Of a stretch of DNA of 25,127 nt, positions 103 to 25,127 are shown piece after piece. How positions within the stretch are numbered: position 1 is the stretch's first letter; each line of letters begins with the position of its first letter. Below the pieces are notes generated by a model. It did not search any database, was not told the DNA's origin, and saw only the letters and a program-made list of their open reading frames with translations. A program made the translations under genes and the position numbers. Source of the DNA: Candidatus Hodarchaeota archaeon (lineage in GTDB: Archaea; Asgardarchaeota; Heimdallarchaeia; Hodarchaeales; Hodarchaeaceae); NCBI GenBank assembly GCA_016839785.1, contig JAEOTQ010000118.1, forward strand, positions 1-25,127, written 5' to 3'.

Positions 103-510
103 TCAATCAAGAAGCATAACTAAAGCTTCACCCATAACAACTAATTCCTCTTGTTGGTTGATACATGTTGTTTTCAGCGTAAGATGGTTTTTCTCATCAT
201 TTTTACTGATTACCTCCACCTGTGTAGTAATAGTATCTCCTATACGAACTGGTCTTTTAAAAACTACCTCTTGTTTAAGATAAATAGTTCCTGGACCAGG
301 AAGCTGACTAGCTAAAGTAGTAGAAATAAAAGAAACAGATAACATACCATGAGCAATTCTCCCTTTAAACATAGTAGTTTTAGCATAGTCTTCATCCATA
401 TGAACAGGATTTAAATCACCAGATACTTCAGCAAACAGTTGAATGTCTTTCTCAGTTATAGTTCGTACATATTCAGCTTTTTGGCCTTTAATAATTTCTT
501 TATATTTCAT
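103..510 (-). CDS. phaJ: MaoC-family (R)-specific enoyl-CoA hydratase/dehydratase (hotdog fold)
   Basis: Hydratase-2 motif FAEVSGDLNPVHMD (catalytic Asp/His), plus GRIAHGML and LPGPGTIY. Start moved from GTG 522 to ATG 510 because AGGAGTGA (SD) overlaps the GTG and sits a few nt upstream of the ATG. Confidence 0.9.
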   Translation of the reverse strand: MKYKEIIKGQKAEYVRTITEKDIQLFAEVSGDLNPVHMDEDYAKTTMFKGRIAHGMLSVSFISTTLASQLPGPGTIYLKQEVVFKRPVRIGDTITTQVEVISKNDEKNHLTLKTTCINQQEELVVMGEALVMLLD

Positions 511-525
511 AGTTCTTATCACTCC

Positions 526-1551
526 TTACTCTTTTCCCCATCGTATTACTCCAGCATTCCATGCCCAGCCGATCCCCGCAGCAGCGAACACCACGATATT
601 TCCACCCTTAATTATTCCTTGTTTTACACCACGATCAATGGAAATAACCATATCATTTTGTCCGTTGTGGCCAATATCATCTAGATAGACTGATTGAGTA
701 TCTGGGTTCACACCAATAGCATTAGCTACATGGTCAAAAGCAGATTTCTTCATGTGAAGAAGGGCTAAAAAGTCTATATCATCTCTAGAAAGGTCGGATT
801 GTTCCAAAGCGTCATCAATAACACGAACAAATGAATCCATTGAAAATTTATCAAGTCTTCCTTTTAATCCTTCAGGATCGGTCACATCAAGGTAATTCAA
901 TCCTTCTTCAATGGCTTTTGCAGAAATTGGAGTAACAGTGCCTCCAGCTGGGACATATACATCATCAGCGAACCGTGCATCTGATACAGCGGCAATACCT
1001 AAGATTTCATTCTCTTTAGTATCTCCTTTCACAATCATTGCTACCCCACTTGCGGCTAGACTAATCATAAATCGTGTCCGTGGATTTTTATAATTTATTA
1101 GATCAGAATTTCTGTACCCCGAAGCTACAAGTACACGTTTCATTTTCGGATATACCTGCATTAATGCTTTTGCTAGTAATAATCCAACGGGCATACTTCC
1201 ACAACGCTGATTGATATCAAAAGCCCATGGTTTTGTGGGACATCCAAGATATTTTTGAAGCTTAATGCCGTAGGTTTGCATTGGATACTCAGAGTAAACT
1301 TCTCCCGCCCAAATTATGCAGTCAATGTCATCAGGGGTCAGGTTAGCCTTTTTCAATGCCTTTTTTGCAGCTTCCGCTCCCATGAATACGGTATGATCCT
1401 CAGGACCAGGAACTGTTTTAGCTTTTAAGCCAAATTTTGTTTCAAGAACTTTCTGTGGGATACCAGTTTCATTTGCGATATGTTCACTTGTGTGACGTTT
1501 ATCTGGAAGATAAACGCCCCAACTTTCGATTCCTACAGGTCTATGATTCAT
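526..1551 (-). CDS. 3-oxoacyl-ACP synthase III (FabH)-like protein A, non-canonical Cys-His-His(+Asp) active site
   Basis: Thiolase/KAS III fold motifs: AFDINQRC(117)G, LLH(266)MK, IGH(295)NGQND(300) and C-terminal AAAGIGWAW. SD AGGTG upstream. Confidence 0.88.
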   Translation of the reverse strand: MNHRPVGIESWGVYLPDKRHTSEHIANETGIPQKVLETKFGLKAKTVPGPEDHTVFMGAEAAKKALKKANLTPDDIDCIIWAGEVYSEYPMQTYGIKLQKYLGCPTKPWAFDINQRCGSMPVGLLLAKALMQVYPKMKRVLVASGYRNSDLINYKNPRTRFMISLAASGVAMIVKGDTKENEILGIAAVSDARFADDVYVPAGGTVTPISAKAIEEGLNYLDVTDPEGLKGRLDKFSMDSFVRVIDDALEQSDLSRDDIDFLALLHMKKSAFDHVANAIGVNPDTQSVYLDDIGHNGQNDMVISIDRGVKQGIIKGGNIVVFAAAGIGWAWNAGVIRWGKE

Positions 1552-1565
1552 GAGGTTACACCTAT

Positions 1566-3137
1566 TTACTTTAGTTCACGCTTTAGGATCTTACCAGCTG
1601 CGCTCAGTGGTAATTTATCCATGATTTCGAATATTTTTGGCACCTTATACTTCGCAAGATTAGCCAGTAAGTAATCTCGAAGTTCTTCTTGGGTAACTAC
1701 TTGATTTGGTTTCAATGTTACAAATGCTTTTCCTACCTCTCCCCATTTTTTGTCGGGAATCCCAATAACTGCAGCTAAAGCAATAGCTTTATGTTTATAC
1801 AGTATTTCTTCGATTTCTACTGGAAAGATATTTTCTCCGCCAGAAATATACATTTCTTTTGATCTTCCAACGATGTAGTAAAACCCTTCCTCATCTTGTC
1901 GTACAAGATCCCCTGTATGCATATACCCATCTGGCTTAAGCGTTTTATTCGTTTCTTCAGGCTCATCCCAGTAACCAGAAAATACATGGGGCCCCTTGAT
2001 TAATAGTTCTCCCACATCTCCCTGTTTAACCACCTCTCCTGTTTCTGGATGAACAGTTTTCAGGTCATTATGGAAAACAGGAAATCCCACCGAAAGGGGT
2101 TTCTCTTTGATTCTCTCATCTGGGAGGAAGAAATTGTTCGGGCCAGCTTCCGTTAGTCCATACCCCATCTTCATAAGTTTTCCCTTAGCCCAAAATCTTT
2201 TCATTATTTCTTCAGGGCAAGTAGCCCCACCAGAAATGAAAATTTTAACTGAATCGAACGTAGCATTAGTGAATTTTTCCGACATTGACATCATATGAAA
2301 TATCGTTGGTACCCCAACTACTATTGTACAATTTTCGTCCTCAATGACTCGGATAGTTTCATCAGGGTCAAAATCTCCCATTAAAATAGTCTTAGCACCT
2401 TGATGAAAGCAGGGAACTAATAAGACATTCCATCCACCAGTATGAAAAAGTGGAAACAGAAGAATTTCCACTTCATCAGGTTGAAGATTCCATGTAAGAA
2501 TAGTGTTAATAGAATTCCAGAAGATTAATCGATGCGATAGAACTGCTCCCTTAGGTAAACCAGTTGTACCACCCGTAAATAGTATCAAATGTGGATCTTC
2601 AAAGTGAATGGGTGGACGTAGAACGTTAGAATCATTTTTTTTAGCCATCAAATTCCGAGAGGCTAAATCATCGTCTAGCTTCTGATCTCCCATTACTATA
2701 TAATTCTTGACGGAAATGATTCCTTTTAATTCAATAATTTTTCCCTTAAGCTCAGGATCGTAAAATAACACTGATGGTTGGGTTTTTTCAACCAGATATT
2801 TGGTTTCTTGATTAGCTAATCGGATGTTAAGGGGAACAAGAATTGCTCCAATCTTACCTGTAGCAAAAAATAAATCTATATAATCTAGACGATTTTTAGA
2901 ATAAACTGCAACTCTTGTACCTTTCTTAACACCCAAATCACCCAGAACTCTGGCTAATTGATTCGCCCGAGAATTCATTTGAGCAAAAGTATAGTGTTTT
3001 TTCTCAATATTATCAATTATTGCTTCTTTATTAGGTGTTAATTGAGCTCTTCGTCCAACGTAATCTCCAATCCAGGACCAATCTTGATGATTTGCAGGGA
3101 TTAGGTAATCAGAATTCATGTTCAAATCAATCCTCAT
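1566..3137 (-). CDS. AMP-dependent acyl-CoA synthetase (ANL superfamily, MenE/FadD-like)
   Basis: FTGGTTGLPKG, FHTGG, GYGLTE, HTGD, GRSKEMYISGGENI and GKILK motifs. ATGA overlap with the upstream gene; an alternative start at ATG 3119 is preceded by GAGGA. Confidence 0.93.
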   Translation of the reverse strand: MRIDLNMNSDYLIPANHQDWSWIGDYVGRRAQLTPNKEAIIDNIEKKHYTFAQMNSRANQLARVLGDLGVKKGTRVAVYSKNRLDYIDLFFATGKIGAILVPLNIRLANQETKYLVEKTQPSVLFYDPELKGKIIELKGIISVKNYIVMGDQKLDDDLASRNLMAKKNDSNVLRPPIHFEDPHLILFTGGTTGLPKGAVLSHRLIFWNSINTILTWNLQPDEVEILLFPLFHTGGWNVLLVPCFHQGAKTILMGDFDPDETIRVIEDENCTIVVGVPTIFHMMSMSEKFTNATFDSVKIFISGGATCPEEIMKRFWAKGKLMKMGYGLTEAGPNNFFLPDERIKEKPLSVGFPVFHNDLKTVHPETGEVVKQGDVGELLIKGPHVFSGYWDEPEETNKTLKPDGYMHTGDLVRQDEEGFYYIVGRSKEMYISGGENIFPVEIEEILYKHKAIALAAVIGIPDKKWGEVGKAFVTLKPNQVVTQEELRDYLLANLAKYKVPKIFEIMDKLPLSAAGKILKRELK

Positions 3138-3928
3138 GTTATCAACTTATCTAAGAAACCAAGAACTATAGAATTAAACTCGTGAGGTTTTTCCCACGTC
3201 ACAACATGACCAGTTTCAGGAATAATGTGCAATTCAGAATTTGGGATCATCTCATGCATCGTCATAGAATAAGGATAAGGTGGTTTAATGAGATCTTGTT
3301 CACCTCCAATGATACACGTAGGAACTCGAATCTCTGATAATTGATCTGTTATATTTAAATCTAGAAAAGCATCCATTAACCTGACAAATGCTGGATAATC
3401 AAACTGTGAATACCGTTCCTTTGATTGTTCAAGTAATGCTTCATTCTTCTCAATATAACTTTCACTGAAATTAAAAGGTACGGTTGCATAGAAGAACATC
3501 AATGGGTCCGCTTGAACGCAGGCGCCTCGCCAAAGCTGACTAACTTGTTTTAAGTACGCACCGATATGAGTGACACCACTACATACTGTTAAACTCTTCA
3601 CACGTTCTGGATACTTCAAAGTGAACACTAGGCCCAGTTCAGACCCATAGGAGATACCAATATGATGTACTTGATCAATACCTAGAGCATCAAGAAGCTC
3701 TTTCTGATCTTGGGCGTGTAAATCAAATGAATACTTACCTTCAGGATGATCACTTTGGCCTTGTCCTCTCATATCATAGAGAATGACCTTATATCTTTTC
3801 GAAAAAACAGGGGTTTGATTAAACCAACTAAGAGTATTAGCAAAAACACCGTTAGCAAAAATAAGGGGTTCCCCTTCTCCATGCATTTCATAATAGATAT
3901 TGATTCCATTTACTTTCATCTGAGGCAT
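3134..3928 (-). CDS. Alpha/beta-fold serine hydrolase (enol-lactonase/esterase-like)
   Basis: Oxyanion ANGV, YDMRGQG, nucleophile elbow GISYG, GGEQD acid and GH catalytic His. TAATG overlap with the upstream ligase and SD GGTGA. Confidence 0.9.
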   Translation of the reverse strand: MPQMKVNGINIYYEMHGEGEPLIFANGVFANTLSWFNQTPVFSKRYKVILYDMRGQGQSDHPEGKYSFDLHAQDQKELLDALGIDQVHHIGISYGSELGLVFTLKYPERVKSLTVCSGVTHIGAYLKQVSQLWRGACVQADPLMFFYATVPFNFSESYIEKNEALLEQSKERYSQFDYPAFVRLMDAFLDLNITDQLSEIRVPTCIIGGEQDLIKPPYPYSMTMHEMIPNSELHIIPETGHVVTWEKPHEFNSIVLGFLDKLIT

Positions 3929-5496
3929 TATTCAGTCACCTTATCCCCGTAATCTTTTAGTAAGCGACGTTTTAGAATTTTACCTGCTCCTGAAATATAA
4001 GGAGCAAAACTCTCAATAAAAACCACTGATTTGGGAAGTTTAAACTTCGCTAATTTTCCTCGACAATATTCAAGCATCTCCTTTTCAGTCGAAAAAACAT
4101 CAGGTCGAAGCACAATAATTGCTCTTCCTGTCTCACCCCATCGATCATGAGGAACACCGATCACCTGAACTTGTACAACCTTGGAATGCTCTTCATAGAT
4201 TCTTTCAATTTCACGAGGATACACATTTTCTCCTCCTGAGATGAACATATCTTTTGTACGATCTAAAACATAGAAATATCCTTCTGAATCATAACGAACG
4301 ATATCGCCAGTAGCAAAAAACCCCTCAGTGTCTAATAATTGTGCATTAAGATTGGGTCGATTCCAGTAACCAGCCGTGACAGAAGGACCTTTAAACATCA
4401 ACTCTCCTGGTTCTTCAGGGCCGCATTCCTTGCCACTTTCGGGATTTACCACTTTTACATCAATGAAAAAATTGGGAGTGCCTATACTACCCTTTTTACG
4501 TTCTGCATCCCATGGATCAAGAGCAAAGCACCCTGGACCGACTTCCGTCATACCGAATCCTTGTTTAAATTTAACTCCGTGGATTTTCTGGAAGGTTTGA
4601 ATGATGTCCATGGGAAGAGGTTCCCCTCCTGACGTTAAAAAGCGAACACTACTGAAATCAGTTGTATCAAAATTCGGATTATTCATCATCATTCGATGTT
4701 GTGTAGGGACAGCGAAGAAGAAATCAGGTTTTTCACTTGTAATTAGTTGTAATACTTTTTCTGTATCCCATGTTTTCATTTGAATAATTTTTCCACCTAA
4801 GATAAAGAGAGGTACAGCATAAACGTAAATTCCTGCAACATGGAACATTGGTAGATGGTTGATATAGGTTGGAGGTACTCCATTTGTAGTAGCTGGGATA
4901 ATATCACGGGTTGTATTTAAGGTATTAAATGCTACATGGTTATAGGTCAAAAGAGCTCCTTTTGGTAATCCTGTTGTACCTCCTGTAAAAACAATGCCCA
5001 TGGGATCCTCATAAGTGAGATTCACCTTCGGAGGGGAGTGTTCGGAGGATTTATTGACTAATTCCTGGTATTTGATCGATCCTTGAAGATCTGAGGATTC
5101 AGAGTCCATGTTTAACCAGTGATCGACTTGTACAAGTTTCTGAATTTCCACACATGTTTCAGTAAACTCCTTTCCAAAAGCTACGATCTTTGGAGATAAA
5201 TCCTTTATCATTTCCGCTAGCTCACGAGCAACAAGTCGCCAATTTAATCCCGCAAGGATACCTCCGCGTTTTTGACAACCAAAAAAGAGTTCCCAATACT
5301 CAATTGTATTATGACTGATAACACACAATCTGTCCCCTTTTTGAAAGTCAAGCGACACAAGAGCATTAGCTACTTTATTAGCCCTTTGATTAAATTCTCG
5401 GTAAGTATAACGGTTTCCACTATCGATGTCTACAAGAGCTTCTACATCAGGGGAATATATTACACGTTTGGATAAATAATCAAATTGATTTACCAT
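3928..5496 (-). CDS. AMP-dependent acyl-CoA synthetase (ANL superfamily), second paralog
   Basis: FTGGTTGLPKG, PMFHVAG, GFGMTE, ATGD, DRTKDMFISGGENV and GKILKR motifs. Confidence 0.93.
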   Translation of the reverse strand: MVNQFDYLSKRVIYSPDVEALVDIDSGNRYTYREFNQRANKVANALVSLDFQKGDRLCVISHNTIEYWELFFGCQKRGGILAGLNWRLVARELAEMIKDLSPKIVAFGKEFTETCVEIQKLVQVDHWLNMDSESSDLQGSIKYQELVNKSSEHSPPKVNLTYEDPMGIVFTGGTTGLPKGALLTYNHVAFNTLNTTRDIIPATTNGVPPTYINHLPMFHVAGIYVYAVPLFILGGKIIQMKTWDTEKVLQLITSEKPDFFFAVPTQHRMMMNNPNFDTTDFSSVRFLTSGGEPLPMDIIQTFQKIHGVKFKQGFGMTEVGPGCFALDPWDAERKKGSIGTPNFFIDVKVVNPESGKECGPEEPGELMFKGPSVTAGYWNRPNLNAQLLDTEGFFATGDIVRYDSEGYFYVLDRTKDMFISGGENVYPREIERIYEEHSKVVQVQVIGVPHDRWGETGRAIIVLRPDVFSTEKEMLEYCRGKLAKFKLPKSVVFIESFAPYISGAGKILKRRLLKDYGDKVTE

Positions 5497-5499
5497 AAA

Positions 5500-6504
5500 T
5501 TACCACCATTGTAACACTGCTGCAGAAAAATTTGCTCCCCCCCCAGATGTACATAGAGCAATGATCTCCCCATTCCCTTGACCTGGAGGGGGAAGTTTAC
5601 CTTTTGCTATTGCATCATAGATCACTAAAGGGACACATGCAGACCCTGTATAACCCCATTTATGCATTACGGTGTGTGTTTTTTCGATTGGTGCTCCTAG
5701 GGAGTCCATTACTGCTTTTATTGTAGATTTGTTAACTTGTGTAAAAAAGAACCAATCACAATCATCAGGAATTAGATTTACTTTCTCTAAGGCCTGTCTG
5801 GTGACAATAGGCCAGTTATTGACATTCGTTTCTGGAGGAAATCGTTTCCTAAACTCTACAAACTGTTTACCACAATTTTGATCCTTACATGGTTCTGCTG
5901 TTCCTCCAACGAATATTCCAAGATGATCATAGTAGCTGCCATCCGCATTAAGTTGGGAACTCAAAAATCCCTTCTTATTTTCGCTTGCAGAAAGAATTAT
6001 TGCCCCAGCTCCATCGGAGAATAATGTGCAAGTATAGTGGTTTGACCAATCCACAAATTTTGTCATTCCATAAGCACCAATAACCATTACATGTCTAATG
6101 GAAGTATCTGTCTGAATATAACGAGCCCCAATATCTAATGCAGTAACTAGACCTGCACAAGCAGCATTTACATCAAAAGTTCCAGCATTGATTGCACCGA
6201 TTTTGTGAGCAATAGCTACTGATGTTGCGGGAGAAAGAAAATCAGGAGTATCTGTGCTAAGGATAAGTATATCGATGTCTTCAGCAATTAAACCTGCTTT
6301 TTCTAAGGCTTCTTTACCTGCTTTTGTCGCCAAATCAGAAGTATTTTCTTCATCCGCCATAAGTCGACGTTGCTTAATACCTACGTTCTTAACAAGCCAG
6401 TCTGCTGTGCCGGGACGATTTAAAGATTTCTCTAGTTCTTCATTGGTGACAATCTTGTCAGGAACATACATCCCTATACCTGTTATTATTGCAGATCGAC
6501 TCAT
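5500..6504 (-). CDS. 3-oxoacyl-ACP synthase III (FabH)-like protein B, Cys retained but His and Asn replaced
   Basis: FabH-like N-terminus (AIITGIGMYVPDKIVTN, GIKQRR), FDVNAAC(116)AG and LFSDGAGA. HQAN appears as TQVN (Thr255) and GNTS as GYTG (Tyr285). Confidence 0.88.
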   Translation of the reverse strand: MSRSAIITGIGMYVPDKIVTNEELEKSLNRPGTADWLVKNVGIKQRRLMADEENTSDLATKAGKEALEKAGLIAEDIDILILSTDTPDFLSPATSVAIAHKIGAINAGTFDVNAACAGLVTALDIGARYIQTDTSIRHVMVIGAYGMTKFVDWSNHYTCTLFSDGAGAIILSASENKKGFLSSQLNADGSYYDHLGIFVGGTAEPCKDQNCGKQFVEFRKRFPPETNVNNWPIVTRQALEKVNLIPDDCDWFFFTQVNKSTIKAVMDSLGAPIEKTHTVMHKWGYTGSACVPLVIYDAIAKGKLPPPGQGNGEIIALCTSGGGANFSAAVLQWW

Positions 6505-6513
6505 ATCATCATC

Positions 6514-7365
6514 CTAAATTAATTTTATTTCTGATCTTGGTGTCCAAGTTTTTCTATCTACCGCTTCGAGAAAATCCAGTACAATACGATTGAAGTCTTC
6601 AGCTCGTTCGACTTCTATCCGATGTGGGGCACTTTTAAAATGAACAAGTTCAGAATTTGGAATTCGTTCATGTAACATCAGAGAATTCTTTGGGGGGACA
6701 ATTAAATCATTTTCTCCGTGCATAATCAAAGTGGGAGCGGAGATATTTTTGATTTCGGACTCAATGTCGATCGTCAAACCAATATTCGCCTGATTATTAC
6801 GAGCAATTTCAGGTTGAGGATTTTCTTCGATCCAACGGTCCATTGTACGGATAAGATCTGGATTGTTCGCTAAAAAATCAGACGACCAAGCCACACTTCT
6901 ACGGATCGCAATAGCTTCTTCTTTTGAAATGGTTTCTGTTGGATGTGCAAAAATAGCGGACATGACTTTTCCACTGGCAGGGATAGCCTGATTGCCCCCG
7001 AAATTAGTCATACCTATTGTTAAACTTAATATTCTCTCTGGATGGGAGATTGCGAACTTTTGGGCGATGAATCCACCCATGGACATACCATAAATATGTG
7101 CTTTGTCTATTCCAAGCTCATCCATCAAAGATTTTGTATCATCTACAAGTAATTCAACGGTGTATGGATTATTGGGTTTCGATGTTCTTCCTACGCCGCG
7201 GTTATCAAAAATAAGGATCCTGTATTTCTGACTAAAAGCTGGGAGTTGTTTAAACCAAGTCCATAGGGCTTGACCCCATCCTTCAATCAAAACAAGTGGA
7301 GTTCCTTCACTTGGTCCATGAAACTCATAATAAACATTAATATCATTAATTTCTACATATGGCAT
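6514..7365 (-). CDS. Alpha/beta-fold serine hydrolase, second paralog
   Basis: IEGWG, FDNRGVG, GMSMGG nucleophile elbow, HGEND and APH. ATG 7365 is preceded by GGAGAG (TTG 7368 is an alternative start). Confidence 0.9.
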   Translation of the reverse strand: MPYVEINDINVYYEFHGPSEGTPLVLIEGWGQALWTWFKQLPAFSQKYRILIFDNRGVGRTSKPNNPYTVELLVDDTKSLMDELGIDKAHIYGMSMGGFIAQKFAISHPERILSLTIGMTNFGGNQAIPASGKVMSAIFAHPTETISKEEAIAIRRSVAWSSDFLANNPDLIRTMDRWIEENPQPEIARNNQANIGLTIDIESEIKNISAPTLIMHGENDLIVPPKNSLMLHERIPNSELVHFKSAPHRIEVERAEDFNRIVLDFLEAVDRKTWTPRSEIKLI

Positions 7366-7377
7366 CAATTATCTCTC

Positions 7378-8868
7378 CTATGGAAAAAGGCTAAAAATTT
7401 GCTCAAAAATTTCGACTATTCGCTTCATTATGTTTTCAAGATCTAACATAAGTGCAAGTATCAAAACTAATGATATTAGAGTTAACCACCAATAATCTGT
7501 TTCTCTTATATTAAACCAGCCTTCCCTTATACGTGTCTTTAATGATCTTGATCGAAGCTGTAATGATCCAACAATGCCGTAAGGGAAGAAGAGAATGATA
7601 AAAATGTAAATAATTCCCAAAAAGACTAACCACCATTGTCCATCAATAGAAAAAGTCCAGAGAAATCTCACCATCCTCCATTCTGAGAATTCGATTAATA
7701 CAGCACCTACAAAAGGCCCTAAAAGAGTACCTAATCCTCCTAAAATGGTGTAAAGCATTGCATTAATTGCTTGACCTATTCCGAAGGTTTCTGGTGTGCT
7801 AACGTTGATGTTATTAACTGTATAGAGCGAACCAGCTAAAGCACCAATGCCACCCGAAATGGTAACGGATAATATCTTATAATAAAAGGTGTTATATCCA
7901 AGAGCTTTAACTCTATCCTCATTTTGAGCGATAGCGGAAAGAACTCTACCAAAAGGAGAAATAGTAAGCCTTTTTACAAAAATATAGACAGCTAGAACTG
8001 ATGTTAAAATCAGCCAATATAAAATCGGAATTTTAAACCAAATGTCAGTAGCAAATAGGTACATGTCAAGAATATTAGGTACAACAAGTATAAGGAGTAA
8101 AATGAACACAGCTACACCTATAATCCAAGAAGTAGTTACTCTTGTGGAAGAAATCCTTTCTTTTTCAGAATAGGAAAATGCAGATCTACGAGGTCTAAAA
8201 TTCAAGAAGAGAAAAGCGAATCTTTCTCTAGTATCCTTTACAACCAAAATGACAAATAGGGAGAGAATAAATATTACAAAGAGAACCATTAACATATAAA
8301 CAATCCAATTTGTAAGTAAAAAAGGCCTTGTAACACTCAAACCTGATTCTCCGCCTGATATAGCCAAATTTTCTTTTAGCTCCATAAATTCTAAAACAAG
8401 CATCGCAATTGCTAAAGCAATAAAAGCGAATGCAGTTCCCTTCATTCTATTTGTTGTTGCTCCCATAACAATACCAACCACCATTCCAGCAAAAATAGCA
8501 GCTACTAATGTTAAGGGAAAAGGTATTAGATTTAATATGTCACCAAGAGGGGAGGGTAAAATTGGGTCTAAACACCAAACAGTAACATAAGCTCCTATTC
8601 CGAAAAATGCTGCTTGTCCAAAGTTCAATAATCCAGTGCGACCAAGTTGCAAATCAAAAGAAAGCGCAAATATCCCTGCGATCATGAATCCTGATAGAAG
8701 ATTGATAAAACCGCGAAGAGGAGATAGCTCTGAATTTGTCAGCAAAGGTAGTAGGTATAGGACTGTTATAACCGATATACTCACCTGATTAGCCGAGATC
8801 AGATCCGATATCTTAGTGATAATGGATTGCTTTTGTTTATTTTTATTAGAATTTGTATGTGTAACCAT
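7378..8868 (-). CDS. livM: LIV/HAAT-family ABC importer permease (LivM-like), enlarged
   Basis: GLLNFGQAAFFGIGAY, GGESGL, SPFGRVLSAIAQNE and ILGGLGTLLGPFVGA motifs; many TM segments; SD GAGGAG. Confidence 0.88.
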   Translation of the reverse strand: MVTHTNSNKNKQKQSIITKISDLISANQVSISVITVLYLLPLLTNSELSPLRGFINLLSGFMIAGIFALSFDLQLGRTGLLNFGQAAFFGIGAYVTVWCLDPILPSPLGDILNLIPFPLTLVAAIFAGMVVGIVMGATTNRMKGTAFAFIALAIAMLVLEFMELKENLAISGGESGLSVTRPFLLTNWIVYMLMVLFVIFILSLFVILVVKDTRERFAFLFLNFRPRRSAFSYSEKERISSTRVTTSWIIGVAVFILLLILVVPNILDMYLFATDIWFKIPILYWLILTSVLAVYIFVKRLTISPFGRVLSAIAQNEDRVKALGYNTFYYKILSVTISGGIGALAGSLYTVNNINVSTPETFGIGQAINAMLYTILGGLGTLLGPFVGAVLIEFSEWRMVRFLWTFSIDGQWWLVFLGIIYIFIILFFPYGIVGSLQLRSRSLKTRIREGWFNIRETDYWWLTLISLVLILALMLDLENIMKRIVEIFEQIFSLFP

Positions 8869-8884
8869 CTTGATTATCTCCTCG

Positions 8885-10144
8885 TTACATTGGTTCTCCA
8901 GTTAATCCTCCAGGCTTGAAAGTGAGAATCGCTAGTAGAATCAGGAATAAAATAATACTCTCTAAACCAGGGTAGAAGAATTGGCAGAAGGTATGACTTA
9001 GGCCGACGATAATTGAAGCCCAAAAAGTCCCAGCAAATCGTCCGAAGTGTGCTCCACCTATTACAACAATAATAAATGCATATATTAAGTAATTACCTGC
9101 GACATCGAGACTTGCATTTACTTGGGGGACAGCAACAGCTCCTGCGAGTCCTGCCATTGCAGCTCCTGTAGCAAAAACAAGTGTAAAAACTCTTTTTGTA
9201 TCAATCCCAAGCGCATTAACCATCTCAGGATCTTCTATACCCGCAGTAATGATTAAACCAATTCGTGTTCGGGATAAAACGAGAAACATACCAATAGCAA
9301 TTACTAGACCAAACAGAATAAGGAAGATGCGGTATATTTCAAATCTCATACCTCCGCCTAGGTCTAGAATTGCTGATCGGGGAAGCCAAAAAATACCTGT
9401 TTGACTTCCTGACACATAATTATAGGTGAAAATCGCTGGTCCCCATATTATCTCTGTTAATTGTAATATAATATAAAGAAATCCTACCGTTAGTAATATC
9501 TGGCTAATAGGTTTACGAAATAGTCTCCTTATCGTCGTAACTTCAATTCCGATTCCAATTAAACCCAAAATTATTGTTGCTCCAATAAGGCCAAATATAA
9601 AGCATATGAAAGACAGTAGGACTGGATCATTCCCTAGGAAGGGGATAGTAATTAAAAAAGATTCGCTTAGGAGGTAAACCTCGTATCCCATAAACCCACC
9701 AAGCATAAAAAATGCTCCATGCGCGAAGTTAATTATATCGGCCAACCCAAAGATGAGGAAAAAACCTGAGGTCATTAAAAATAATAACATACTGAAAGCT
9801 AATCCGTTAACTAAGGTTAAAGAACCGTTTTGCATAAAGATTTCTACTCCCTTAGACTCCACCTCAACAAACAACCATAAGCAACTAATTACGATTATTT
9901 CTACCAGGGAAAAAATCTGTGGGAGTTTTTCCTTCCGGGGAGTTGGTATAGATAATAATGCTAGTCCCATTATCCATACTCCAACTATCATTTTAAATAT
10001 CTGATTAGGTAGTTCAGCTTTATCTAGAATGATCCACAAAATAGTAATTATCCCAGAAATTAAGGCAATAAAAATCTTCAAGAACAGAATAAGTCTCTTT
10101 TTATAATCCTCATTTGAATTTATTGATCGTATTAAGCTTATCAC
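8885..10144 (-). CDS. livH: LIV/HAAT-family ABC importer permease (LivH-like) with N-terminal membrane extension
   Basis: GFFLIFGLADIINFAHGAFFMLG, RTRIGL, ALGID and FIIVVIGG motifs. The GTG start is supported by SD AGGTGA. Confidence 0.88.
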   Translation of the reverse strand: MISLIRSINSNEDYKKRLILFLKIFIALISGIITILWIILDKAELPNQIFKMIVGVWIMGLALLSIPTPRKEKLPQIFSLVEIIVISCLWLFVEVESKGVEIFMQNGSLTLVNGLAFSMLLFLMTSGFFLIFGLADIINFAHGAFFMLGGFMGYEVYLLSESFLITIPFLGNDPVLLSFICFIFGLIGATIILGLIGIGIEVTTIRRLFRKPISQILLTVGFLYIILQLTEIIWGPAIFTYNYVSGSQTGIFWLPRSAILDLGGGMRFEIYRIFLILFGLVIAIGMFLVLSRTRIGLIITAGIEDPEMVNALGIDTKRVFTLVFATGAAMAGLAGAVAVPQVNASLDVAGNYLIYAFIIVVIGGAHFGRFAGTFWASIIVGLSHTFCQFFYPGLESIILFLILLAILTFKPGGLTGEPM

Positions 10145-10159
10145 AAGTTTTCACCTTCT

Positions 10160-10870
10160 TTAGACATTTACTCCTAAATATCGACTTATTAATTCATGGT
10201 CGTCTACTAAAGTTTCCATTTTTCCATTATGAGCGATTTTCCCATCATCAAAGATGTAGTAATAATCTCCCACGGATTTTGCAGCAGCGAAATTTTGTTC
10301 AACCAATAATACAGTTTTTCTTTTCTCCTTTATTGCATGAAGGGTTTTTAACACGTTTTTTGCTAGTAAAGGTGATAAGCCCTCAGTTGGTTCGTCAATT
10401 AAAAGAAGATCATTATCATTAATTAATGCACGGGACACAGCAAGCATTTGTTGTTGACCTCCACTCAAGCTCCCTGCTTTTTGGCCTAGGAAACGCTCAA
10501 AATCGGGAAATAATTCGAAAATCTCACTCAAACGTTCATCGTAAGTTTTACTTCCCTTCCTCAAGGCAATTTCAAGATTTTGTTCTACTGTAAGACTCTT
10601 AATAATGCGACGAGTGTCAGGAACATATCCAACTCCTCTCTGGACAATTTTATGCGTAGGAAGATGAGCAATATTTACTCCTTTGTATATAATTTCACCT
10701 TTACGTGGAGGGTTAAGGCCTAAAATCGCCCTCATGGCTGTGGTTTTTCCTGATCCATTTCTTCCAAGTAACACTGTCGTTTTTCCTTCAGGTACAAAAA
10801 AAGAAATTCCGTGGAGAATGTAGAACGACTGAATATAAACGTGAATATCATTAACTTCAAGTAAATTCAT
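10160..10870 (-). CDS. livF: ABC ATPase (LivF-like)
   Basis: Walker A GRNGSGKT, LSGGQQQ, IDEP and the LivF-type VEQN. ATG 10870 is preceded by GGTGG (the ORF-track GTG 10879 overlaps this SD). Confidence 0.92.
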   Translation of the reverse strand: MNLLEVNDIHVYIQSFYILHGISFFVPEGKTTVLLGRNGSGKTTAMRAILGLNPPRKGEIIYKGVNIAHLPTHKIVQRGVGYVPDTRRIIKSLTVEQNLEIALRKGSKTYDERLSEIFELFPDFERFLGQKAGSLSGGQQQMLAVSRALINDNDLLLIDEPTEGLSPLLAKNVLKTLHAIKEKRKTVLLVEQNFAAAKSVGDYYYIFDDGKIAHNGKMETLVDDHELISRYLGVNV

Positions 10871-11633
10871 GTATACCACCTAAATACGCTGAAAGAACGT
10901 TTTCATTGTTCTGTATTTCTTTTGGGGTTCCTTTAGCCAGAACTGATCCTTGAGATAGAACAATGACTTCTTGACTAATCTTCATTACGATCCCCATTTT
11001 ATGCTCGATAACTATCATTGTTAAATTGTCACCGAACGATTTCTTGATTTTCAGAAGTATCTCATAAATTTCTGGAATTTCTTCAACAGACATCCCCGCT
11101 GTCGGTTCATCAAGCAGCAATAACTTTGGATTTGTTGCTAAAGCCATGGCTATTTCTAATTTACGCTGTTCTGCGTGAGGTAATAGTGATGCGGGTGCAT
11201 AAAGACGTATTGGATCAATACCGATAAGATCGGCAAATCTAAACGTTTCCTCATGGTATTCTGCATAAGAACTTGCTTTTCCCACAAGATTATAGTGAAC
11301 TTGAGTGTTACCACGGCTTTGAACTGCTAGACGGATATTTTCAAATGTCGTTAGGTAGGGAAAAATATTCGTAATCTGATACGATCTTGAAATACCTAAT
11401 TGAGAGATAGTGTGAGGAGCTAACCCAGCAATGTCTCTATCGTTAAGAAATATGCTTCCTGATGTTGGTTTAAGAACTCCAGTTAATAAATTGAAAAATG
11501 TTGTCTTACCAGAACCATTTGGACCAATAATAGATTTTAATGATCCTTTTTCAAAATCGAGCGACACCTTGTTGACCGCTACCAGCCCTCCAAACTCTTT
11601 GGTTAAACTTTTTGTGCTTAATATTGCTGTCAC
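10857..11633 (-). CDS. livG: ABC ATPase (LivG-like)
   Basis: FGGLVAV, GPNGSGKT, degenerate signature LPHAEQ, LLLLDEP, IEHKM and the C-terminal AYLG typical of LivG. Confidence 0.92.
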   Translation of the reverse strand: MTAILSTKSLTKEFGGLVAVNKVSLDFEKGSLKSIIGPNGSGKTTFFNLLTGVLKPTSGSIFLNDRDIAGLAPHTISQLGISRSYQITNIFPYLTTFENIRLAVQSRGNTQVHYNLVGKASSYAEYHEETFRFADLIGIDPIRLYAPASLLPHAEQRKLEIAMALATNPKLLLLDEPTAGMSVEEIPEIYEILLKIKKSFGDNLTMIVIEHKMGIVMKISQEVIVLSQGSVLAKGTPKEIQNNENVLSAYLGGIHEFT

Positions 11634-11669: not shown

Positions 11670-12689
11670 TCATAAAATATATGTATTTCCTGCTCTTAAA
11701 ACAGTAAATTTAGCTTCTACTCCTTCTTCCAATAATTTCAGAGCTTTATCACAAGTATCGTGAGCTGAAAGTAATAATTTTTTTACTTTGATCGAATTAA
11801 GGAATTTAATCGTTTTTGATAAATCCTTCAAAGTGATCTTCTTAGGAAATGGCTTACCAGTTCCCAAAACTTGTTGGAAAGGCACTCCCCAAATTTTCCC
11901 TCTTGATTCGCTAATAGGAAAATGTAAACCTCCCACGATTGCATAAATAGGTTCATTTGGAACCATTTTTTTTACCATTTTGACAATAACCTCAATTGTT
12001 GGATGTCCACACCCAGTTAGTATCAAAATTCCTTTATTTCTAATTTTGGTTATAATTGCTTGCTCTTCAATATTATTTAAGTAAAATAACTCTCTCCTAA
12101 GTGGCCCTGTTGTAGCAAATCCTGACCCAATGACCATTGGTTTCGTAGTGACAATTATTTTCAAATCATCAGAGGTACAAAACTCGGGCACATAAGCAGA
12201 CCGTTTATTGGTAGTTTTTACTATGTCAGGTAGTGAAATTTCCTTCTCTTTCTTACCCACACTCACCCCCGCATGATCAGAATGTAAATGGGAAAATATG
12301 AATTTGTCGATTTGTTTCTCAAACAAACCAATTTTGTTAACATTAAATGAAAAAACAGGATTTTGATTTCCAAATCCGATATCCATTAGCAAAGATCCTT
12401 TATTTGTCTCTAGATAATAGGAAACTGCTGGATTTCCTTTATATCCCTCTTGAAAATAAAAATCCACAATAACACTCAGATTTAGGAATTCTATTTCTTC
12501 AATTTCGAAAGGAACAGCTGAGTTTATTCGAATGTTATTTTGTTGATTAGTTCTCTGAATTCGTTTTTTAAACTGATAATTTTTCAAAAATAGATATGGT
12601 AAAATTATGGGCGAACTGATAATTAATGCTGGTAAATACGACGTCCACCACCATAAATGAAAGATCCTGGTAGTTAATCTGGCCACCAT
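11670..12689 (-). CDS. Metallo-beta-lactamase-fold hydrolase with hydrophobic N-terminal segment
   Basis: SHLHSDH (HxHxDH), TGCGHP, VGGLH and SAHD metal-binding motifs. The TGCxH/GGLH pattern fits the MJ0448-like MBL subfamily. Confidence 0.85.
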   Translation of the reverse strand: MVARLTTRIFHLWWWTSYLPALIISSPIILPYLFLKNYQFKKRIQRTNQQNNIRINSAVPFEIEEIEFLNLSVIVDFYFQEGYKGNPAVSYYLETNKGSLLMDIGFGNQNPVFSFNVNKIGLFEKQIDKFIFSHLHSDHAGVSVGKKEKEISLPDIVKTTNKRSAYVPEFCTSDDLKIIVTTKPMVIGSGFATTGPLRRELFYLNNIEEQAIITKIRNKGILILTGCGHPTIEVIVKMVKKMVPNEPIYAIVGGLHFPISESRGKIWGVPFQQVLGTGKPFPKKITLKDLSKTIKFLNSIKVKKLLLSAHDTCDKALKLLEEGVEAKFTVLRAGNTYIL

Positions 12690-12751: not shown

Positions 12752-14167
12752 TTATTTTTTCTTCTTCTTATAGAAAACTACTGGTACTATAGCTATCATT
12801 GCTAATGCAAGTCCGAAACCAGGAGCTCTAGTAACAGTTGTCACAACAGTAGTAACGTCTGGATAGGGGACGTAGTTTGTAGCAACTGGGGGAGCACAGT
12901 CTAACGCTGGGATACTTTGATTTAATTCCGCAATGATCATGTTGTACGTTTCAGAGGTTGCATCAGTATCGTTAACGACATCAGCGATGTACATCTCAGC
13001 TAATCCTTGGTGATCAGTGGGGCGTAAATATGTTGGTCCCTTTGGTGTAGTAATGTTCAAACCTTCTAAATGAGCAATCATATTGTCAATTTGAAGAGTT
13101 GGAACAGTGTTTGTAACATTAACTAAGAATTGAGCTGCTCCAAAGGCGCTAGCTGTGAAAAGCTCTGGAACTCGGTATGTAAGTCCGTATTGACCGTTAG
13201 GTGTAACATCTCTGTCGATATGTTCTTGAACCATCCAATCATTGACTGGATTATCTGGGAGTTTGTATCCATAAACACATAATCCTTGGGTTCCAACAAT
13301 AGTTCCTCCAAGAGGTTTTAATGCTGCCTCTAGTGCATTCATTGAAAGAATATCAATAGCTACACCGGAAATATTCATGTTAGCACCAACATTGTATGTT
13401 GCGATATCTGCCCACATACCTGTAAAACTACCAGCCCAGATGATATGAAGCATATCGATACGGCCTGTAGTAGCTTCGGTGTTAAGTCTGGTTAGGTAAG
13501 AAGAGAAATCAGTGGTTCCGTAGGGGGCATACTCGGTTGTAACGACTTGGCCTCCACGTTTAACGACTTCACTCTGCATTGCAGCGACACCTGTGTATCC
13601 GAAAGGATGGTCTAGAGCGAGGAAAGCAATTTTCTTTGCATCTAATACGTCCATAGAATGATAAATACCTGCTTTAGCATCATGGTAACTATTACGAGCT
13701 ACACGGAAGGTATGTTTATCAAATAAGCTGGCTGTAATTTCAGCATCAGCAGCAGGTCCTGCAAAATATAACTTTCCGTAATCAGCGGCTACTTGCATGA
13801 TATTTGGTGCGACACTGCTTGAAATACCTCCAACAAGAATATCTATTCCGTCGGTTTCAATCGCATCTGTGGCAATAGCTGTAACAGCTGAACCGACACC
13901 TGTTGTGTCATAATAATGTATTTCATAAGGTGCACCAGTATCTGTCTGATTAGTATTGTCTGTTGAATATATTAGTCCTAATTCAAATCCTTGTTTAACC
14001 CATGGTGTATAAGCAACCAGAGTTCCTGTTTCTTGAATAAAGACACCTATTTTAATAGGATCTGTCTGATTAGTCTCTTCTGGCAATCCTAAAGTAGGAA
14101 TAAAGCTTGCTGCAGAAAACACAAACAGAAATAAAATTGTTAATGAAAATAGATTTGCTTTTTTCAT
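12752..14167 (-). CDS. LIV-type (PBP1) ABC solute-binding protein SBP1 with C-terminal PGF-type membrane anchor
   Basis: N-terminal signal peptide, PIKIG, DILVGGISS, TFRVARNSYHDA, TTDFS and TPKG..LRPTDHQ motifs. It ends in a Thr-rich linker, PGF, a TM segment and KKKKK. Confidence 0.9.
   Translation of the reverse strand: MKKANLFSLTILFLFVFSAASFIPTLGLPEETNQTDPIKIGVFIQETGTLVAYTPWVKQGFELGLIYSTDNTNQTDTGAPYEIHYYDTTGVGSAVTAIATDAIETDGIDILVGGISSSVAPNIMQVAADYGKLYFAGPAADAEITASLFDKHTFRVARNSYHDAKAGIYHSMDVLDAKKIAFLALDHPFGYTGVAAMQSEVVKRGGQVVTTEYAPYGTTDFSSYLTRLNTEATTGRIDMLHIIWAGSFTGMWADIATYNVGANMNISGVAIDILSMNALEAALKPLGGTIVGTQGLCVYGYKLPDNPVNDWMVQEHIDRDVTPNGQYGLTYRVPELFTASAFGAAQFLVNVTNTVPTLQIDNMIAHLEGLNITTPKGPTYLRPTDHQGLAEMYIADVVNDTDATSETYNMIIAELNQSIPALDCAPPVATNYVPYPDVTTVVTTVTRAPGFGLALAMIAIVPVVFYKKKKK
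13940..14074. repeat. Exact 15-nt direct repeat ATCTGTCTGATTAGT (13940-13954 and 14060-14074) inside SBP1
   Basis: Both copies encode TNQTD with identical codons and lie 120 nt apart. Confidence 0.7.
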
Positions 14168-15135: not shown

Positions 15136-16569
15136 TTAGAATATAATCCGTCGTTTCAAAATAACAGGAATCGTTCCCATAGCTACTAATGGGAGTACTA
15201 TGGTCATTGCAGAGGTCTTTTGGGGTCTCGTAAGGCTTCCAGGTATCCAGTTACTCTCGAGAGGTGGGGTAACTTCCTCAGGCGTAAGTCGTTCGATGAG
15301 CCTGGGAATTAGATAACCATATGTTTCTGAAGATTGTCTTGTATCATTCCAAATTTCCGCTATATAGAATTCAGTGATGGCTTGATGATCTTCTGGACGA
15401 AGATATGTGTCTCCTTTTGGAGTGATAATCGATAGATTACTTTCTAAATAGTTTACCATGTCGTAAATGTCAAAATCTGACACTCTATTGGATACATTCA
15501 CCAAAAATTGTGCTGTAGCAAAACCACTCGCCGAAAATAATTCTGGTACGCGGTATTCATGATTAGAAAATTCCGCATTAGGACGAATATTTCTATTGAG
15601 ATATTCCTGTACCATCCAGTCGTTCACTGGGTTGTTGGGTAATTCATAGCCATATAAACATAATCCTGTTGATCCTAAAAGCGTGTGAGGAGGTGATAAA
15701 CTTTCTTCTATGACATTAATTGAGTAAATATCGATTACTGCCCCTCCCACACCCATACCAGAGGTAACATTGTACTCACCTAAATCTTGCCAGAGGTACC
15801 CAAAATTCCCTGACCAAATGATAAATAGATAATCTATCCCTATATTTTCTTCTGCTGTAAGGATATTACTTATATAAGGACTAAAATCAGTTGTTGTTAG
15901 GGGTGCATATTGAACCAAAATAACTGATCCACCCTTTTCTGAAATAACATGAGTCATTGTATCGACTCCGCTGTGACCAAATGTATAGTCGGCAGCGAAA
16001 AAGGCGAATTTTTCTGCTCCTAGCGTTTCAATAGCATACGTAACTCCTGCATATGCGTCCATCCAGTTATTTCGTGCAATCCGGAAAGTATATGGATTAA
16101 AATCCTTTCCAGTTAGATCACTATCAGCACCTGGGACAATGAAGAAGAGTTTTTGATGTTCTTCGGCTACTTTAGCTATTGCCCCTGCTACATCAGAATA
16201 GGTTCCTCCTACAAGGACATCTACTTCATCTCTTGTAATTGCTGCTTCTGCAAGAGAGATAGCATCAGCAACTAATCCTTTAGTATCATAGTAAACTATG
16301 TCAAAGGGTCTTCCACAAAGAGTTGAATTTGTATTATTGGTAGCATAACTCATTCCAAGTTCAAATCCTTGTTTCGACCAATCTGAATAGAAAGATAAGC
16401 TTGCAGTGGTTTCAGCACTAAAAAATCCAATTTTAATGGGTTTTACTCCCACAACTCCACCTTTCAGGTTTCCTGTACTCATAAGGTAAGAAGTTGATAG
16501 TAAAACGAAAAATAAAACAGAAAATTTTCCCAATGAGCTGGTTCTTTTCCTAGTAAACGTACTTATCAA
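15136..16569 (-). CDS. LIV-type solute-binding protein SBP2, paralog of SBP1, C-terminal TM anchor without PGF
   Basis: Shares blocks with SBP1 (QGFELG, NPVNDWMVQE, YRVPELF, TPKG.TYLRP.DHQ). Hydrophobic N- and C-termini. The TTG start is uncertain. Confidence 0.87.
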   Translation of the reverse strand: MISTFTRKRTSSLGKFSVLFFVLLSTSYLMSTGNLKGGVVGVKPIKIGFFSAETTASLSFYSDWSKQGFELGMSYATNNTNSTLCGRPFDIVYYDTKGLVADAISLAEAAITRDEVDVLVGGTYSDVAGAIAKVAEEHQKLFFIVPGADSDLTGKDFNPYTFRIARNNWMDAYAGVTYAIETLGAEKFAFFAADYTFGHSGVDTMTHVISEKGGSVILVQYAPLTTTDFSPYISNILTAEENIGIDYLFIIWSGNFGYLWQDLGEYNVTSGMGVGGAVIDIYSINVIEESLSPPHTLLGSTGLCLYGYELPNNPVNDWMVQEYLNRNIRPNAEFSNHEYRVPELFSASGFATAQFLVNVSNRVSDFDIYDMVNYLESNLSIITPKGDTYLRPEDHQAITEFYIAEIWNDTRQSSETYGYLIPRLIERLTPEEVTPPLESNWIPGSLTRPQKTSAMTIVLPLVAMGTIPVILKRRIIF

Positions 16570-24738: not shown

Positions 24739-25127
24739 TATCTTTCACCTCGCATGACGGCAGCTGCAGCTAATACTGCCTTAATCTGACCAGAATAACC
24801 GGTGCAACGGCATAAATTCCCATCTAAGGCGAATTTTATTTCATTTTTTGTGGGATTTGGGTTGTTATCAAGTAAGTTCTTTGCTGCAAGGATCATTCCC
24901 GGAATACAAAAACCACATTGAACTACTCCTTCATCAACAAACGCTTGCTGGATTGGATGGGGATTATCTCGTGTACCTATCCCTTCGATTGTAATAATTG
25001 TTCCATCCTCAGCTTGGGCTGCGAGCATAATACAGGATTTTACTGCTTTACCATTGAAAATAATTGTACAGGTACCACATGTTCCTTCTTTACATCCTTT
25101 TTTTACCCCTTTATACCCTTCACGCCT
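24738..25127 (-). CDS. 2Fe-2S-binding small subunit (CoxS/CutS/XdhC-like), 5' end outside the window
   Basis: The frame stays open to the window edge upstream of the ORF-track ATG: RREGYKGVKKGCKEGTCGTCTIIFNGKAVKSC, then QCGFC and GNLCRC. TAATG overlap with the Mo subunit. Confidence 0.93.
   Translation of the reverse strand, partial: RREGYKGVKKGCKEGTCGTCTIIFNGKAVKSCIMLAAQAEDGTIITIEGIGTRDNPHPIQQAFVDEGVVQCGFCIPGMILAAKNLLDNNPNPTKNEIKFALDGNLCRCTGYSGQIKAVLAAAAVMRGER

Follow-up and report, generated by a model that had tools for sequence, protein, structure and literature searches.

The window analysed here is the whole of a 25,127-nucleotide stretch, contig JAEOTQ010000118.1 of the Candidatus Hodarchaeota archaeon assembly GCA_016839785.1, and it carries a run of thirteen tightly packed genes that are all on the minus strand, from position 14167 down to 103 (Table 1). 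In operon order these encode an importer substrate-binding protein (SBP), a metallo-β-lactamase (MBL)-fold hydrolase, the importer components LivG, LivF, LivH, and LivM, an alpha/beta hydrolase (ABH2), a FabH-like protein that we refer to as B, an acyl-CoA ligase (ACS2), a second hydrolase (ABH1) and a second ligase (ACS1), a second FabH-like protein (A), and a MaoC-type hydratase. This analysis concerns B, the product of an uninterrupted open reading frame (ORF) with an ATG start that encodes 334 amino acids. An earlier note on this DNA described B as a full-length relative of FabH, or KAS III (ketoacyl-ACP synthase III; ACP, acyl carrier protein), with Cys116 in place, but with TQVN for HQAN and GYTGSAC for GNTSAAS, and alignments to FabH structures agree with that description. 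In FabH, the His and Asn of these two motifs form the oxyanion hole for malonyl decarboxylation.

Active site, conservation, and phylogeny of B

In HMMER alignments B matches solved FabH proteins over its full length, with E values from 1.6e-52 for the best of them (Aquifex, 2ebd) to 4.4e-49 (the others being B. subtilis FabHA, 8vd9, and S. pneumoniae FabH, 5bqs). The FabH catalytic Cys (E. coli Cys112) aligns with Cys116 of B, within NAACAG. The B sequence FTQVN lies beneath pHQAN and WGYTGSACVP beneath yGNTsaasiP, such that the catalytic His (E. coli His244, of HQAN) is Thr255 in B and the catalytic Asn (E. coli Asn274, of GNT) is Tyr285. Both KAS III domains are present (Pfam ACP_syn_III, 86.3 bits; ACP_syn_III_C, 66.2 bits), and the AlphaFold2 model, built from a 47-row alignment, has a mean pLDDT of 95.9 and a pTM of 0.93, with Foldseek matches to FabH and BioZ at TM 0.87 to 0.92. 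At the family level, two curated FabH models give opposite answers for B: TIGR00747 fabH scores 225.3, under its cut-off of 292.1, and NF006829 scores just over its own. HMG-CoA synthase models fall far under theirs (54.3 versus 244 bits). The thiolase combination of Cys, His, and second Cys is not found in B, which has no His at the site equivalent to GHP, nor are thiolase domains (Thiolase_N, 22.7 against a cut-off of 26.4).

What B has in common with FabH (Aquifex 2ebd, B. subtilis FabHA 8vd9, E. coli 1hn9) and with the CoA-using BioZ is the full-length fold, the catalytic Cys, the Gly-rich loop, and the CoA-contact motifs. It differs from FabH in the Thr and Tyr replacements, in about ten further pocket changes, in an inserted GGTxxP loop, and in its location in an importer-ligase-hydrolase operon rather than in a fab cluster. 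As to the malonyl-ACP donor expected of a FabH enzyme, the ACP domain (PP-binding, PF00550) has no match in the window's genome, which is 84.5% complete, and the control search was positive in 11 of 14 genomes.

The replacement residues are not peculiar to the window sequence. B and its 120 best matches (61 to 89% identity; source names Hodarchaeales, Thor-, Hermod-, and Promethearchaeota) all have C116, T255, Q256, N258, G284, Y285, T286, G287, and C290, each in 121 of 121 sequences. When B was used as query to retrieve 58 genome loci, Thr was found at position 255 in 41, and Tyr at 285 in all 38 of those that reach this position, the other three ending at contig edges before it. These Thr/Tyr loci are 40 to 73% identical to B and come from Thor- and Heimdallarchaeota, Chloroflexota, Actinomycetota, Ignavibacteriota, Gemmatimonadota, and Polyangiaceae; of the remaining loci, 16 are ordinary His/Asn FabH genes at 27 to 36% identity and one is too short to read. 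Invariance on this scale goes far beyond chance. The replacements do not reflect decay, and B, with its domains and predicted fold in place, is an intact FabH-fold gene and, judged by this conservation, a functional one. The check on TQxN and GYTG conservation proposed in the earlier note is therefore answered in favor of a clade-wide motif.

An exhaustive search of 50%-identity cluster representatives gave a similar division. Among the best 150, 22 have Cys/Thr/Tyr and 104 have Cys/His/Asn; all 22 are within the first 63 rows, interleaved with canonical FabH from row 22 onward. Of the other 24, 17 are fragments missing one or both sites and seven have other residue combinations, and the pairs are mixed in only two rows of the 150 (Ser with Asn in one, His with Gln in another). 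This near-absence of mixed pairs suggests a switch in function rather than drift. Named cluster members of the B clade include Anaerolineales and Caldisericia, and every source name that we saw for these genes is 'ketoacyl-ACP synthase III'.

In a quick IQ-TREE analysis of 76 rows, with SH-aLRT as the only support measure, the Thr/Tyr rows are set apart from the others by a branch with support of 99 (37 of the 76 rows are on their side, including one Asn/Tyr row and one fragment), and in a second tree rooted with HMG-CoA synthases the Thr/Tyr clade splits off with support of 98 (21 rows). The seven Asgard rows of the 76-row tree form a clade (100), which is sister (93) to a clade of Chloroflexota, Actinomycetota, and Ignavibacteriota, within a wider radiation of metagenomic rows. 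B is patchily distributed in Asgard archaea. It is present in 36 of 301 genomes; within the window's own genus 3 of 21 genomes have it, and within one Thorarchaeota-type family 31 of 76 do. Such an accessory distribution is consistent with operon transfer and, together with the tree, suggests that B reached Asgard archaea from bacteria along with its operon. By these sequence comparisons, the B clade is a distinct, deep, and uncharacterised FabH-fold clade of Asgard archaea that is also widespread in anaerobic bacteria such as Chloroflexota.

Three further sequences were encountered in this survey. P0137 (327 amino acids, with FTHGG and GYTAN) lies on the FabH side of the 76-row tree, between the Thr/Tyr clade and canonical FabH, and may be an intermediate or a third variant. 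A distant B-type copy in another Asgard family (G077:C90:1293-2282; 41% identity) has two internal stops, one TGA and one TAA, and is likely a pseudogene. P0160 (412 amino acids; also P0308), from two sources, joins an N-terminal B-type domain to the C-terminal third of an alpha/beta hydrolase (ABH) by Pfam; it was considered as a B-ABH fusion and dropped, its Pfam domain content making a deletion chimera spanning the module more likely.

Comparison of 23 Thr/Tyr rows (the 22 representatives and B) with the 104 His/Asn rows identifies D85, S91, G196, P223, N227, W231, T255, Y285, G287, C290, and S320 as specific to the Thr/Tyr clade. The elements needed for an acyl-enzyme are retained, including Cys116 at the start of its helix, the Gly-rich loop (G321 and G323 invariant), Trp36, and Q256 and N258 of the xQxN motif, and the FabH CoA-contact motifs are kept in B. 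By residue spacing counted from the catalytic Cys and the Gly-rich loop, D85, S91, and S320 would be the equivalents of E. coli FabH Thr81, Phe87, and Phe304; FabH Phe87 restricts primer size. Thr81 and Phe304 are among the active-site residues of E. coli FabH (1HNJ) in PMC6749404.

The position of Asp85 has a counterpart in 3-hydroxy-3-methylglutaryl-CoA (HMG-CoA) synthase. In a profile-profile alignment with four archaeal HMG-CoA synthases (98.9% probability, E 1.2e-17), Asp85 of the B clade aligns with the invariant Glu92, and Cys116, Thr255, and Tyr285 align with Cys124, His246, and Asn278, respectively. The archaeal Glu and Cys correspond to residues 84 and 116 of the E. faecalis HMG-CoA synthase chain 3v4n, and these become Glu79 and Cys111 after a five-residue offset relative to 1x9e, counted by hand. 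According to a review (PMC13412983), the HMG-CoA synthase triad is Cys-His-Glu, with the Glu taking the alpha-proton of acetyl-Cys. B is like HMG-CoA synthase in having an acid at the general-base position and a catalytic Cys, and HMG-CoA synthase is itself ACP-independent and uses CoA substrates; it is unlike it in lacking the His (Thr255) and in having Asp rather than Glu, and so does not have the Glu-Cys-His triad. The window's genome also encodes an ordinary HMG-CoA synthase on another contig (C242), cut by the contig end, and a 559-amino-acid fusion (G000:C11; L074:985-2664, minus strand) of an HMG-CoA-synthase-like domain with a zinc-ribbon, DUF35-like C-terminal part.

A second comparison is with the paralogue A. 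An hhalign alignment of B with A (E 5e-52) pairs D85 with Glu84, T255 with Leu265, Y285 with His295, and C290 with Asp300. A, which scores 403.6 bits on PRK06840 against a cut-off of 315, is itself without the FabH triad: the His site holds Leu265 and the Asn site His295, with Asp300 five residues on. His295 and Asp300 do not vary among 16 A-type sequences, and Cys117 and Glu84 hardly do; a His at 266, one residue beyond the FabH His site, varies (H/R/L). The Cys-His-Asp pattern of A looks like that of the DpsC/ChlB3-type acyltransferases. A His and an Asp five apart are reported for DpsC (S118-H297-D302), OxaC (S113-H292-D297), and ChlB3 (C113-H296-D301) in PMC12308425 and PMC9573744. Like DpsC, CerJ, ChlB3, and OxaC, B has a KAS III fold without the decarboxylation pair, keeps the nucleophile, and has a pair of residues five apart at the Asn-site loop; unlike them and A, which have His/Asp, B has Tyr/Cys, and so fails to match the Cys/Ser-His-Asp triad. 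These enzymes also differ from B in acting with ACPs in antibiotic pathways, and they are not close to it in sequence, no DpsC/CerJ-type acyltransferase being among the 60 PDB matches listed for B. Two of these features may be new: the placing of an invariant Asp85 where HMG-CoA synthase has its general base (with Glu84 likewise in A), and the Tyr285/Cys290 pair in B where A has invariant His295 and Asp300.

Gene linkage and the relation of B to A

B is closely associated with a ligase and a hydrolase. In the window the ACS2 coding region begins 3 nucleotides after the B stop codon and ABH2 is directly upstream of B. Among related loci with at least 1 kb of downstream sequence, a ligase lies directly downstream on the same strand in 36 of 37 Thr/Tyr loci and in none of 14 canonical FabH loci; an ABH gene is within 4 kb in 36 of 41 Thr/Tyr loci (directly upstream of B in 32 of the 41) and in none of 16 canonical FabH loci, although many of the loci counted are Thorarchaeota kin, so these figures overstate independence. 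ACS2 keeps the adenylate-forming motifs. Among solved proteins it is closest to fatty-acyl- and feruloyl-CoA synthetases (8weu/8wev, E 2e-86) and to FadD13, and ABH2 to the esterase Est1 (6eb3/8v16, E 7e-47), and the nearest solved proteins to SBP are uncharacterised R. palustris-type binding proteins. The solved relatives of SBP, ACS2, and ABH2 point to no substrate. Complex prediction for ACS2 with B gave a score of 0.00 in two runs in which the controls did not fold, and has no bearing either way.

Table 1. Genes of the thirteen-gene operon and their coordinates in the window.
Gene	Product or features	Coordinates	Strand	Match
SBP	importer substrate-binding protein (Peripla_BP_6)	12752..14167	minus	3n0x/3nnd, E 1.5e-39
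MBL-fold	MBL-fold hydrolase, inserted between LivG and SBP	11670..12689	minus	
LivM, LivH, LivF, LivG	LivMHFG-type ABC importer: two permeases, two ATPases	7378..11633	minus	
ABH2	serine alpha/beta hydrolase (GMSMG)	6514..7368	minus	
B	member of the Cys-Thr-Tyr clade with the FabH fold (Cys116, Asp85, Thr255, Tyr285, Cys290, Ser320)	5500..6504	minus	
ACS2	AMP-forming acyl-CoA ligase	3928..5496	minus	Pfam AMP-binding, 272 bits
ABH1	serine alpha/beta hydrolase (GISYG)	3134..3928	minus	
ACS1	second acyl-CoA ligase, constant neighbour of A-type genes	1566..3137	minus	
A	FabH-fold paralogue; Cys117, Glu84, Leu265 at the FabH His site, His295/Asp300	526..1551	minus	NCBIfam PRK06840
MaoC	MaoC-type (R)-specific enoyl-CoA hydratase domain protein, adjoins A	103..522	minus	Pfam MaoC_dehydratas, 96.7 bits

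The operon contains two paralogous arms (ACS1/ACS2, 37% identity; ABH1/ABH2, 34%; A/B, 22%), and A and B share the GGTxxP loop, which is not in the aligned FabH structures. In the tree rooted with HMG-CoA synthases, A (16 rows) and the Thr/Tyr clade group together against canonical FabH with SH-aLRT support of 94; because A is on a long stem, we regard this grouping as tentative, and the sister relationship of the two clades, possibly a new one, is proposed with the same caution. The pairing of A with MaoC recurs across related loci, and A has its own ligase and ABH gene in all four loci examined from genomes without B.

The earlier note raised the possibility that B is a partner subunit for A and asked whether the two types of gene occur together; the distributions do not bear this out. 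Of the 301 Asgard genomes, 36 have B, 96 have A, and 30 have both. A occurs alone in 66, including genomes of families f14 (A in 33 of 68 genomes, B in none) and f17 (12 of 19 versus none), and B without A in six, of which four are 74 to 83% complete and two carry distant B-types, one with internal stops. In five Asgard genomes with no A within 10 kb of B, A is elsewhere in each: at distances of about 10, 100, and 334 kb in the three whose chromosomes are complete, and on another contig in the other two. The A-family profile was also run against five bacterial genomes, of unknown completeness, that have B and no A near it in the fetched stretch. One gave a true A-type match (504 bits); in the other four the best scores (134 to 159 bits) are what B-type or FabH proteins reach as cross-matches. 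A and B are nowhere neighbors, and three genes separate them in the window. Moreover, A has neither the FabH His (Leu265) nor the Asn (His295), and is thus no 'normal' subunit for B to complement. We conclude that B is not an obligate partner of A, and this quantified, two-way independence may be a new observation.

Several other features of these loci deserve mention. In a Chloroflexi metagenome-assembled genome, a single ORF of 899 amino acids (L028:11043-13742, plus strand) joins an ACS2-type ligase (AMP-binding) to an Abhydrolase domain. None of the 58 related loci contains a match to the MBL-fold gene of the window; a different MBL gene is downstream of the B module in a Heimdall locus (L024, 14284-15273). 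The SBP C-terminus has a hydrophobic tail followed by KKKKK, with a weak Heimdall-CTERM match (16.9 bits, under the cut-off of 24), and may represent an archaeal surface anchor added to an acquired bacterial-type gene. The rest of the window (15136-16569, minus; 16753-18009, plus; 20486-22321, minus; 22405-25028, minus) encodes a second Peripla_BP_6 protein, a HAMP-domain protein, a 7TM histidine kinase, and a molybdenum hydroxylase of the aldehyde oxidase/xanthine dehydrogenase type with a 2Fe-2S subunit.

A proposed reaction for B and its alternatives

The retention of the acyl-enzyme parts, together with replacement of the decarboxylation pair by a fixed set of polar residues, leads us to a model of nondecarboxylating chemistry at acyl-Cys116. 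We propose, with about even confidence for and against, that B is an ACP-independent, nondecarboxylating acyl-cysteine enzyme that acts on the acyl-CoA made by ACS2 within an importer-linked operon. The setting would be an uptake-and-processing pathway for an acid or ester, in which an imported acid, possibly freed from an ester by the linked hydrolases, would be converted to its acyl-CoA by ACS2, and this would acylate Cys116 of B, most likely in a FabH-type homodimer that works alone and without ACP. The acyl-enzyme would then be processed by a new catalytic set rather than through malonyl decarboxylation, with Asp85 as a candidate general base, as the Glu is in HMG-CoA synthase, and a Tyr285/Cys290 dyad perhaps taking the place of the His/Asp dyad of A and of the KAS III-like acyltransferases. 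In the second half-reaction, the acyl group could pass to an O- or C-nucleophile or the acyl-Cys could undergo enolate chemistry, the result being acyl transfer to a nonmalonyl partner or C-C chemistry with it. The homodimeric state, the roles of these residues, the acylation, the substrate, and the reaction are all predictions from this model, and stand apart from what is directly observed, namely which residues are present, how far they are conserved, the clade that they define, and the linkage of the genes. Of the suggestions in the earlier note, a nondecarboxylative enzyme with new chemistry is the one that the evidence favors; a Cys-based acyl carrier or transacylase keeps some likelihood, because B still has the FabH parts that make the acyl-enzyme.

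A number of observations weigh against this model. The match of Tyr285 and Cys290 to the DpsC-type triad comes from the alignment to A, residue spacing, and published numbering, and the proximity of Asp85, Tyr285, and Cys290 to Cys116 is likewise predicted from homology. The hydroxyls of Thr255 and Tyr285 could in principle still form an oxyanion hole, and the window's genome encodes an acyl-CoA carboxyltransferase (508.7 bits), such that a malonyl-type extender is possible. B narrowly exceeds the cut-off of the NCBIfam FabH subfamily NF006829 (253.1 versus 249). The Arg after the xQxN motif, which we take to be the ACP-docking Arg249 of FabH, is kept in 109 of the 121 close homologues, with Ser260 in the window's B. 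As to context, the relatedness of the counted loci tempers the linkage figures, and 30 of the 36 B-bearing Asgard genomes also have A, making functional dependence of B on the A arm possible. In our literature searches, neither a KAS III clade of the Cys-Thr-Tyr type nor these Asgard genes were the subject of any paper found.

A more specific version of the nondecarboxylating model is one that we hold only tentatively, as possible rather than probable. A and B would be sister ACP-free KAS III-fold clades with an HMG-CoA synthase-like acidic base, and the Cys116-Asp85-Tyr285/Cys290 set of B, undescribed in the thiolase superfamily, would enolise or transfer the acyl-Cys and so, with no decarboxylation step, form or cleave a C-C bond on an acid brought in by the importer.

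Among the alternatives, the one that survives best, though still unlikely, is a degradative role for B, as a C-C lyase or a thiolase-like enzyme, in which, after CoA activation and MaoC hydration, it would carry out a retro-aldol or retro-Claisen reaction on a β-hydroxy- or β-keto-acyl-CoA using Cys116, Asp85, and Tyr285. The operon looks catabolic, with its importer, esterases, ligases, and MaoC hydratase, a feruloyl-CoA synthetase is among the best solved relatives of ACS2, and the pocket has both an acidic base at the HMG-CoA synthase position and a Tyr; there is also an analogy in a steroid aldolase of thiolase fold, reported in PMC12329534, in which thiolase residues are put to new use and which forms complexes with a hydratase. 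However, the operon has no dehydrogenase, and MaoC travels with A rather than with B. The thiolase-fold aldolases that act together with MaoC hydratases, moreover, are not known to have a nucleophilic Cys, and B keeps its Cys.

Slightly less probable again is a decarboxylating condensing enzyme, in which the Thr255 and Tyr285 hydroxyls would serve as the oxyanion hole and malonyl-CoA as the extender. Hydroxyls are able to donate hydrogen bonds, and the retained CoA-contact motifs, the carboxyltransferase, and the NF006829 score noted above are in keeping with this. FabH mutants in the His and Asn lose decarboxylation but keep transacylation, and the clean partition of the 150 representatives into 22 Thr/Tyr and 104 His/Asn rows with two mixed, the ten or so further pocket changes, the TIGR00747 score below its cut-off, and the lack of an ACP match in the genome all argue against continued decarboxylation.

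We also consider it improbable that B is a stoichiometric, Cys-based acyl carrier that replaces ACP, loaded by ACS2 and delivering to other enzymes. In its favor, the genome search turned up no ACP, and B and ACS2 are nearly always adjacent. Carriage as such is disfavored: B-clade genes are common in bacteria that possess ACP, ACS2 resembles an ordinary CoA ligase, and the strict conservation of about ten pocket residues besides the Cys points to catalysis rather than carriage.

An obligate A-B heterodimer, with B as its degenerate subunit, is quite unlikely. The model for it is PqsBC, an obligate heterodimer of degenerate FabH-like subunits, and there are likenesses: FabH-like proteins with incomplete triads share an operon with an AMP ligase, PqsC is among the PDB matches of B (E 3e-14), and A and B are paralogues that occur in one operon here and together in most B-bearing Asgard genomes. 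Nonetheless, the adjacency and Cys pattern of PqsBC are unlike those of A and B, which are not adjacent and can be far apart on chromosomes, have separate ligases, both keep the Cys, and are not mutually dependent across genomes, given the 66 Asgard genomes with A and no B and the A-type gene in only one of five bacterial B genomes.

Very unlikely is an Ole-like module in which B, ACS2, and the hydrolase would act as OleA-, OleC-, and OleB-like proteins in β-lactone or olefin formation. The three protein types are present, and OleBC fusions occur, as does the ligase-hydrolase fusion of the Chloroflexi ORF; but OleA chains match only residues 20 to 141 of B (E about 1e-16, versus 1e-52 for full-length FabH), OleA retains His and Asn, no OleD-type short-chain dehydrogenase/reductase is in the window operon, and the operon is tied to an importer. 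That B is a decaying or nonfunctional FabH relic, as the loss of two of three triad residues and the internal stops of the G077 copy might hint, is scarcely credible given the invariance of the replacement residues, the depth and diversity of the clade, the intact ORF, and the confidently predicted fold.

The 'ketoacyl-ACP synthase III' label carried by B-clade genes implies fatty acid synthesis, which these proteins almost certainly cannot start, and a mislabelled FabH feeds into arguments about bacterial-type lipid synthesis in Asgard archaea, the relatives of eukaryotes. The strictly conserved Cys/Asp/Thr/Tyr/Cys pocket is a defined site, open to testing, at which the thiolase superfamily may have acquired new chemistry. 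If B does carry out C-C chemistry without decarboxylation, it would bring to that superfamily a type of reaction new to it, and if A and B are ACP-free, they would illustrate how Asgard archaea can handle acyl groups without a carrier protein.

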